A stretch of DNA of 64,000 bases from an uncultured Bacilli bacterium (GCA_934101865.1 CAKOSA010000002.1:17929-81928), one strand, 5' to 3'; numbered from the stretch's first letter, positions 60,062-60,330 are shown. Notes: generated from the letters alone by a model not told the origin. A program made the numbers and translations.

Positions 60062-60085
60062 ATTCTTACCTTCTTTCTTTATACA

Positions 60086-60139
60086 CAGAAAAAGACTATA
60101 ACAAATCAGAGTACTCCCATACTCTTTATGTTATAGTCT
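60086..60139 (-). terminator. Intrinsic terminator inside the 5' leader of the 499-aa gene
   Basis: It has the same hairpin as 54400-54453: AGACTATAACA (60139-60129) pairs with TGTTATAGTCT (60103-60093), followed by TTTTTCTG. Confidence 0.75.
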
Positions 60140-60163
60140 CTTCTTTTTATTATAGTAGCTCCG

Positions 60164-60265
60164 CTACTTAATGTACCTGTCGGTACAATCCCCCCCCCCG
60201 AACGATTGTTCGTATTTATAAATTACTTTTAACAATTTTACATAGTTATTCATACTTCTTTTCAT
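60164..60265 (-). CDS. Leader small ORF (33 aa) containing the G10 tract
   Basis: My hand translation gives MKRSMNNYVKLLKVIYKYEQSFGGGDCTDRYIK*. It has the same SD (AGAAAGAGAGGTG) and the same frame through G10 as the first leader. The N-terminal part is unrelated. Confidence 0.4.
   Translation of the reverse strand: MKRSMNNYVKLLKVIYKYEQSFGGGDCTDRYIK
60190..60199 (-). repeat. Homopolymeric G10 tract (C10 on plus strand) in leader ORF
   Basis: These are ten consecutive C residues on the plus strand. Confidence 0.95.
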
Positions 60266-60301
60266 AGCGGAATTGCACCTCTCTTTCTATCCTATACCTA
60301 A

Positions 60302-60330
60302 ATTTTATCAACTTTTTATAAATTTTTCAA
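60302..60330 (-). promoter_or_regulatory. Promoter of leader + 499-aa gene (TTGAAA-17-TAAAAT)
   Basis: On the minus strand, TTGAAA is at 60330-60325 and TAAAAT at 60307-60302. It stands back-to-back (8 bp apart) with the plus-strand promoter of RNA module 1. Confidence 0.5.

Follow-up and report, generated by a model that had tools for sequence, protein, structure and literature searches.

The window analyzed here, a stretch of 64,000 nt from an uncultured Bacilli bacterium, carries two copies of a leader in which a run of ten Gs lies within a small ORF and is followed by hairpins and an intrinsic terminator. This raises the question of what such a leader does to the gene behind it, and which of its features are preserved by selection. 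For copy B, which lies entirely on the minus strand (60062-60330, read 5' to 3' on that strand), our answer is a phase-variable leader-peptide attenuator, to which we assign a probability of roughly 70 %. By analogy with a streptococcal system, copy B would be a slipped-strand switch that acts through ribosome-mediated antitermination. Its sequence predicts that it is OFF as assembled.

The anatomy of copy B can be read directly from the DNA (Table 1). The leader ATG is located 10 nt beyond the GGTG of the Shine-Dalgarno block, and both stop codons of the short frames (TAA and TAG) are found at the 3' foot of hairpin 1. The terminator combines an outer stem (GACTATAACA/TGTTATAGTC) with an inner stem (AGAGTAT-GGGA-GTACTCT), and its T-run is just 25 nt away from the main start codon (60061). 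About 100 nt separate the -10 box from the G tract further downstream, which is therefore outside the promoter spacer; the main ATG follows the tract at a distance of 129 nt. Hence, the tract is placed neither between the -35 and -10 boxes nor in the regulated coding sequence, which are the positions that define promoter-spacer and intragenic contingency loci.

Table 1. Features of the two leader copies and of the gene behind copy B, in window coordinates.
Feature	Position	Strand	Remarks
Copy B promoter TTGAAA-17-TAAAAT, TG before the -10	60302-60330	-	10/12 matches, extended -10
Copy B Shine-Dalgarno block AGAAAGAGAGGTG	60276-60288	-	same in copy A
P0 5' strand GGTGCAATTCC (Shine-Dalgarno flank, overlaps the Shine-Dalgarno end)	60269-60279	-	full-leader MFE
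Copy B leader ORF as assembled (G10), 33 codons MKRSMNNYVKLLKVIYKYEQSFGGGDCTDRYIK, stop TAG	60164-60265	-	predicted OFF
Copy B G10 homopolymer, predicted slipped-strand mutable site	60190-60199	-	tract length 5-12 elsewhere
P0 3' strand GGGGATTGTACC (G-tract end and 5' arm of hairpin 1)	60182-60193	-	full-leader MFE
Copy B long-frame extension (G9/G12 only), 27 sense codons IVPTGTLSSGATIIKRRDYNIKSMGVL and TGA 60106-60108	60106-60189	-	
Hairpin 1 TGTACC-GACA-GGTACA	60172-60187	-	-8.1 kcal/mol, z -3.9; 2 nt past the G tract
Hairpin 2 AGTAGC-GGA-GCTACT	60154-60168	-	from the fold; 2 compensatory pairs
Variable A-rich spacer, including the 11 nt of the preliminary description	60139-60153	-	stop-free in the long frame only
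Intrinsic terminator, two-tier, followed by T5	60084-60138	-	-26.3 kcal/mol, z -7.4
Regulated gene, 499-aa protein with N-terminal membrane helix	58562-60061	-	paralogues after every leader copy
Copy A of the leader	about 54375-54625	-	same part order as copy B
Copy A promoter TTGCAA-17-TATTAT	54597-54625	-	
Copy A leader ORF	54478-54558	-	
Copy A G10	54504-54513	-	
Copy A terminator	54408-54452	-	

The preliminary description of this locus had compared the two copies, and each of its statements was borne out, with two refinements concerning the spacers and the site of the TAA/TGA change. The Shine-Dalgarno region is identical over 17 nt (AGAAAGAGAGGTGCAAT), and the two tracts share the same length and are the sole G10 runs in the window. 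The downstream hairpins and the terminator, which had been called identical, agree at 107 of the 112 nt from the G tract to the T-run. The two 11-nt spacers between the second hairpin and the terminator (TTAAATGGAAT and ATAAAAAGAAG) are equal in length and do differ, with mismatches at 4 of the 11 positions rather than throughout. The single substitution in the terminator (CTCTAATTTG to CTCTGATTTG) does change TAA to TGA, but it had been assigned to the apex region, whereas the fold puts it in the 3' internal loop, on the 3' side between the inner and outer stems. The N-termini of the small ORFs are unrelated, MKKISKKFFEVHLLN with 15 codons before the tract and MKRSMNNYVKLLKVIYKYEQSF with 22, and both ORFs enter the tract in one frame and end in GGGDCTDRYIK.

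To follow the frames beyond the tract, the small ORF was translated in silico with the tract shortened or lengthened. In copy B, the G10 frame ends with a TAG at +26 nt from the tract, about 25 nt short of the terminator stem, and the G11 frame ends with a TAA at +22. The G9/G12 frame is open through both hairpins, the spacer, the 5' arm of the terminator and its inner stem, and yields a long form of 52 aa that is the predicted ON state. Its stop codon, TGA in copy B and TAA in copy A, ends at +84, leaving 2 nt to the outer 3' arm and 12 nt to the T-run.

The same frame rule was observed directly in about 35 copies, in which one tract-length class alone yields an ORF that reaches the terminator. 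Despite the variable length of the leaders, the long-frame stop ends 12-16 nt ahead of the T-run (stop/T-run positions of 84/96, 83/96, 97/110, 121/134, 78/94 and 81/97), while in two copies, C16:105 and L011, the long frame passes right through the terminator. The remaining tract-length classes stop at +5 to +50, mostly at +12 to +33. TAA, TAG and TGA are each found at the conserved long-frame stop among the copies. In the main family, exactly one stop, the last codon, occurs in the long frame of 16 of the 17 copies, compared with 2-7 stops in the other two frames. A metagenomic copy (L078) with a 6-nt in-frame deletion in the spacer keeps the frame.

The significance of the open frame was assessed in two ways. 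In dinucleotide shuffles, any frame reached the 3' arm with P values of 0.14-0.25 in each of four lineages and 0.67 for L011, and the product over these five divergent lineages is about 6e-4. A substitution test, which has little power, showed that 9 of the 243 possible changes create stops, so that about 1.5 would be expected among the 40 observed changes, while none was found (P ~0.2). Copies that lack an in-frame small ORF in front of an intact gene had been proposed as the observation that would speak against function. Two were found among the roughly 35 copies, too few to refute it: L110 in the genome G002, a clearly degenerate copy that has lost its small ORF, and L073, in which a 1-nt insertion in the spacer shifts the long-frame stop to +60, within the 5' arm. 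The contig-end copy C16:105 was considered as a further case and rejected, as it has a Shine-Dalgarno motif GGTGAT and an ATG at -88 from which the long frame is open.

The preliminary description had concluded that selection acts on the frame and structure of the leader rather than on the N-terminal peptide. The selection on structure and the free N-terminus hold, as does the preservation of a frame, but it is a different frame from the one named. The preserved frame is the alternative G9/G12 frame, open up to the stop just before the 3' arm of the terminator. The shared ending GGGDCTDRYIK is just the translation of identical hairpin 1 nucleotides and is therefore no evidence for selection on the G10 frame. 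The change from TAA to TGA, in turn, preserves the stop of the alternative frame. The G10 tract had been presented as a fixed feature, but a better reading is that it forms the mutable part of a phase switch.

Differences in tract length between strains and between orthologues were observed directly. Between the window and the assembly L085 (ERZ27287173), the sole difference in 3,904 bp is one G fewer in the copy A tract, a G9/G10 homopolymer difference between consensus assemblies carrying identical proteins. In L085, copy A is in the long frame, and the gene caller used for that assembly called a 45-aa ORF. Copy B (G10) and the copy on contig C13 (G11) are unchanged in the same assembly, which argues against a systematic homopolymer bias. 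Orthologues one G apart are also found for L076 (G9) and L082 (G10), for the copy on contig C9 (G9) and L075, L081 and L013 (all G10), and for C2:16321 (G11, short frame) and L098 (G10, long frame). Within G002, three near-identical leaders have G5, G6 and G7. The C9 copy is G9, and thus in the long frame, in all three assemblies carrying it, and the assemblies G000 (the genome of the window) and G001 have one long-frame copy apiece.

These differences bear on an explanation at the RNA level, in which either the polymerase slips along G10 or hairpin 1 stimulates a +1 shift of the ribosome at the last GGG. A constant share of the messages or ribosomes would then enter the long frame, resulting in a tunable low expression that is not heritable instead of ON and OFF lineages. 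Located 2 nt past the tract, the conserved and covarying hairpin has the position expected of a frameshift stimulator, a shift of +1 out of the G10 frame leads exactly into the long frame, and copy B is G10 in 3/3 assemblies carrying it. Nevertheless, we consider this explanation unlikely, since the tract lengths differ in the DNA, between orthologues as well as between near-identical assemblies, and long-frame copies already exist (the C9 copy, L098, L108, L096 and L076-78). Moreover, the copies in G157, a genome of another genus, obey the frame rule although hairpin 1 is not evident in them (L093 and L096). Slippage at the RNA level and at the DNA level are not exclusive, as both would feed the same frame-dependent override of the terminator.

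The leader structure is under selection. In an alignment of 20 sequences, 93 % of the cells of four helices are paired and 10 pairs have compensatory changes, which was matched by 0 of 500 shuffles, while slid controls were only 24-47 % paired. Hairpin 1 has compensatory changes in 4 of its 6 pairs and is rebuilt across lineages as TGTACC/GGTACA, TGTATC/GATACA, TGTCCA/TGGACA, TGCATC/GATGCA and TACATC/GATGTA. The outer stem of the terminator is 99.5 % paired, with 3 compensatory pairs. In the minimum free energy (MFE) fold of the full leader, a long-range helix, P0, replaces hairpin 1, and the two are mutually exclusive. The P0 duplex has -21.4 kcal/mol in copy B and -16 to -25 kcal/mol in most copies, and it is likewise present in copy A and most others. 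The cognate partner ranks best of 12 in 6 lineages and among the top two in 8, and the complementarity is re-made elsewhere (GGTGCCCCCCC:GGGGGGGTGCA, AGAGAGGTGCATCC:GGGTGCATTTTTCT and GGAGCCCC:GGGGCT), with a modest excess of paired cells over shuffles (85.8 % compared to 79 %). These sequence comparisons are suggestive of P0 as a real helix. P0 may limit the loading of ribosomes on the leader to a co-transcriptional window. It could also occlude the Shine-Dalgarno sequence of the leader, which would be a point against the switch.

Such conserved RNA parts could also belong to an ordinary attenuator in which a factor or ligand binds hairpins 1 and 2 or P0, with the G tract as a structural strand and the small ORF and its frames as incidental features. 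This fits with the near-invariance of hairpins 1 and 2 in the main family, the MFE pairing between the C-rich Shine-Dalgarno flank and the G-tract end, and some covariation in P0. However, a search of the region 50000-64000 against Rfam (cmscan, E up to 1) gave only a chance miRNA match elsewhere, and no alternative antiterminator helix that competes with the 17-bp terminator was found in folds of the leader. The motif ACTATA after hairpin 2 was examined as an antiterminator and discarded, as it offers 6 bp only against these 17. Furthermore, binding would leave unexplained that divergent leaders of variable length keep one frame open as far as the 3' arm, that three stop codons alternate at the same site and that the tract length ranges from 5 to 12. 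We therefore regard an attenuator of this kind as very unlikely. Regarding attenuators of the trp, his or pyrBI type, the only candidate for a regulatory codon run in the leader is GGG x 3, made by the tract itself. A possible internal promoter over the 3' arm (TTGTTA-15-TATAAA) was rejected because of its poor spacing and a -10 box that is missing in the C9 and G001 copies.

The genome of the window (774 kb in 17 contigs, 32 % GC, 52 % complete) contains 7 G/C runs of at least 9 nt compared to about 0.1 expected, all of them in small upstream ORFs, and their presence is therefore not due to chance. The leader architecture is found at 6 of the 7 runs, namely at copies A and B, C2:16321 (G11), C9:7623 (G9), C13:21554 (G11) and C16:105 (G10), and each leader copy is followed by a paralogue of one surface-protein family. 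Two further genomes of the same genus contain 5 (G001) and about 11 copies (G002), and G157, a single genome from a different genus of the family, contains 2. BLAST and covariance-model searches of 151 genomes showed that the leader is absent from 148 other genomes of the family. Since it is confined to the genus of the window and one other, it constitutes a narrow sequence family. A further 13 copies came from a pattern scan of metagenome contigs, and the frame rule spans three species of the genus, the second genus and the metagenomes. The weakest explanation, a recently duplicated or gene-converted cassette with a chance open frame and tract differences caused by assembly errors, could draw on the 96 % identity of copies A and B over 112 nt between unrelated flanks (a recombination signature), on the non-independence of copies within a species and on the non-significant substitution test, but it is highly improbable given this genome-wide enrichment, the one-G difference in L085 next to two unaltered tracts, and a rule that holds with compensatory changes in little-related leaders (C2:16321, C13, L003/L106/L112 and G157).

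Several observations were made in the surroundings of the copies. The G11 copy at C2:16321-16331 of G000, about 1.6 kb before the start of the window, has a pre-promoter block (ttcctttcatttataatatatcattttttt..aaatatcaataaaa) in common with copy B (compared with 60331-60400 of the window), where the block adjoins small-RNA cassettes. The leader and this upstream neighbor may have been duplicated together. Some leaders of G002 (L011, L110 and L112) carry, between tract and terminator, a palindromic element that starts with TTATGCGAACGTTCGCATAA and is found in both orientations. This element has the appearance of a MITE-like insertion able to disable or lengthen the switch; in L110, the tract is gone along with the small ORF, and the terminator and the gene remain. 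Outside the window, at C4:56828-56910 of G000, a G12 run lies in an unrelated small ORF (MKITFIVWGGG..) upstream of a 172-aa gene that is prophage tail-fibre-like (PHROG tail families, E 2e-14). In one tract-length class, the end of this ORF overlaps the start codon of the gene as ATGA. At this locus, a phage tail-fibre tip may be under phase-variable translational coupling.

In the proposed switch, a sigma-70-type promoter would give rise to a leader of about 240 nt, and a ribosome would load at the strong Shine-Dalgarno sequence and translate the small ORF containing G10. Slippage during replication would alter the tract by one G and in this way choose among three frames, heritably and reversibly. 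In the G10 and G11 frames, the ribosome would stop at the foot of hairpin 1 and leave, about 25 nt too early, so that the terminator could fold and transcription would end about 25 nt before the gene (OFF). In the G9/G12 frame, it would run through the hairpins, the spacer, the 5' arm and the inner stem and stop right before the 3' arm. With the RNA polymerase on the T-run, the terminating ribosome would then cover this arm and block the terminator, and the gene of the 499-aa surface protein would be transcribed (ON). A useful slippage rate, the translation of the small ORF and the override of the terminator by the ribosome are taken from the analogy with pil1 of Streptococcus gallolyticus.

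This scheme would depend on a ribosome that keeps close to the polymerase. The RNA polymerase of Bacillus subtilis outruns the ribosomes, and therefore close coupling is not to be assumed in the Bacilli lineage. The S. gallolyticus case indicates by analogy that coupling can be workable in a Firmicute. Speculatively, a polymerase pause at hairpin 1 might give the ribosome time to catch up, and P0 might restrict loading to the first, co-transcriptional ribosome. A wider reading, in which the leader represents a class of modular cis-regulatory RNAs from uncultured gut Bacilli and its extra parts are functional, is possible but tentative. Here, P0 would close the leader once the first ribosome is loaded. 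Hairpin 1, which excludes P0, would pause the polymerase only with a ribosome aboard and thereby enforce the coupling that Bacilli otherwise lack. The cassette, placed before a whole paralogous family, would form a 'phasome' with usually one member ON.

The closest known system is the pil1/pil3 switch of S. gallolyticus, in which GCAGA repeats lengthen a leader peptide and the ribosome destabilizes a premature terminator, as shown genetically (Danne et al. 2014, PLoS Pathog, PMC3894217). As in that system (PMC3894217), a promoter, a Shine-Dalgarno sequence, a repeat-bearing leader ORF, a premature intrinsic terminator and surface-structure genes follow each other in order. In both systems, the repeat number determines whether the leader stop falls within or beside the terminator, in copy B at the TGA listed in Table 1. 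In contrast to the 13-26 GCAGA units of pil1/pil3, the repeat here is a G homopolymer that changes in steps of 1 nt, and the terminator is reached in one of three frames, compared with both out-of-frame classes in pil1. The two leaders have no sequence homology, and since the copy B leader is without a GCAGA repeat, it is an analogue of pil1 and not a homologue. Compared to the two pilus operons, the leader described here occurs in at least 6 copies per half-complete genome in front of one paralogous family, and it has hairpin 1, hairpin 2 and the helix between the Shine-Dalgarno flank and the G tract as additional conserved RNA parts. Its host is an uncultured gut Bacilli lineage with a small genome, and it is known from sequence, whereas pil1/pil3 is known from experiment. 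Full-text literature searches for a poly-G leader-peptide attenuator returned the GCAGA case only. The best reading of the copy B leader, by analogy, is a homopolymer version of the pil1/pil3 switch, which is itself known experimentally from a single streptococcal case.

Two other types of regulation are related in parts. In pyrBI and pyrE of E. coli, a ribosome close behind the polymerase blocks the folding of the terminator, and no antiterminator helix is needed. The leader described here shares with them an ORF that runs into the attenuator. However, the signal in pyrBI/pyrE is physiological, as UTP-dependent pausing sets the coupling, while the signal here would be genetic, with the frame set by tract length. 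Classical contingency loci are located in promoters, such as the poly-A of vlp in Mycoplasma hyorhinis, the poly-C of fim in Bordetella and the poly-G of tpr in Treponema, or in coding sequences, such as the poly-G tracts of Neisseria and Campylobacter. The leader resembles these loci in its presumably hypermutable homopolymer and the stochastic control of a surface protein that it would exert, and relatives from other genera use those placements. It differs in that the tract lies in a separate small ORF and would act on transcription termination.

The four paralogues in the window (499, 530, 500 and 346 aa) have an N-terminal membrane helix and a C-terminal domain of about 300 aa in common. 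Searches of the four against Pfam, NCBIfam and PDB sequences gave transmembrane-helix noise only. An AF2 model of the 499-aa protein (pLDDT 86) consists of the membrane helix, a CBM32/CBM6-like beta-sandwich and the C-terminal domain of about 300 aa, for which the best PDB match is the IgA peptidase of Thomasclavelia ramosa (9qa6, E 2e-7, 309 columns). According to this model, the family members are plausibly surface binding proteins. After the 499-aa gene, a 12-bp hairpin (AGTAGAATACAT/ATGTATTCTACT) is found at 58536-58566 on the minus strand (region 58424-58566). The downstream 530-aa paralogue has its own promoter (TTGAAT-17-TATTAT, 58451-58479) without a G-tract leader. Therefore, copy B would control at least the 499-aa gene, and not every paralogue is switched.

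In other, more distant genera of uncultured gut Bacilli, members of the same family have tracts of G9-G13 between a TTGAC -35 and a TATAAT-like -10 box, for example TTGAC-G10-TATAAT (L053, L056, L046, L039, L058, L052, L038 and L027), or have the tract directly behind the membrane helix within the coding sequence (L050 and L025). Since poly-G tracts also occur in the promoters and coding sequences of other genera, the family is a recurrent target of homopolymer phase variation. With three poly-G placements across genera, one protein family would exemplify the convergent wiring of contingency loci.

If the proposed reading is correct, stochastic surface variation in common, uncultured, Mycoplasma-like gut Bacilli uses a pil-type switch, and what had been a curiosity would become a general design. 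The ON or OFF state of each paralogue could then be called from assemblies or reads, based on the start frame, the tract length and the distance to the terminator, and the states of surface antigens would become trackable in metagenomes. Given the carbohydrate-binding-like fold and the fold resembling the N-domain of an IgA peptidase, the switch probably governs contacts with the host or with glycans.
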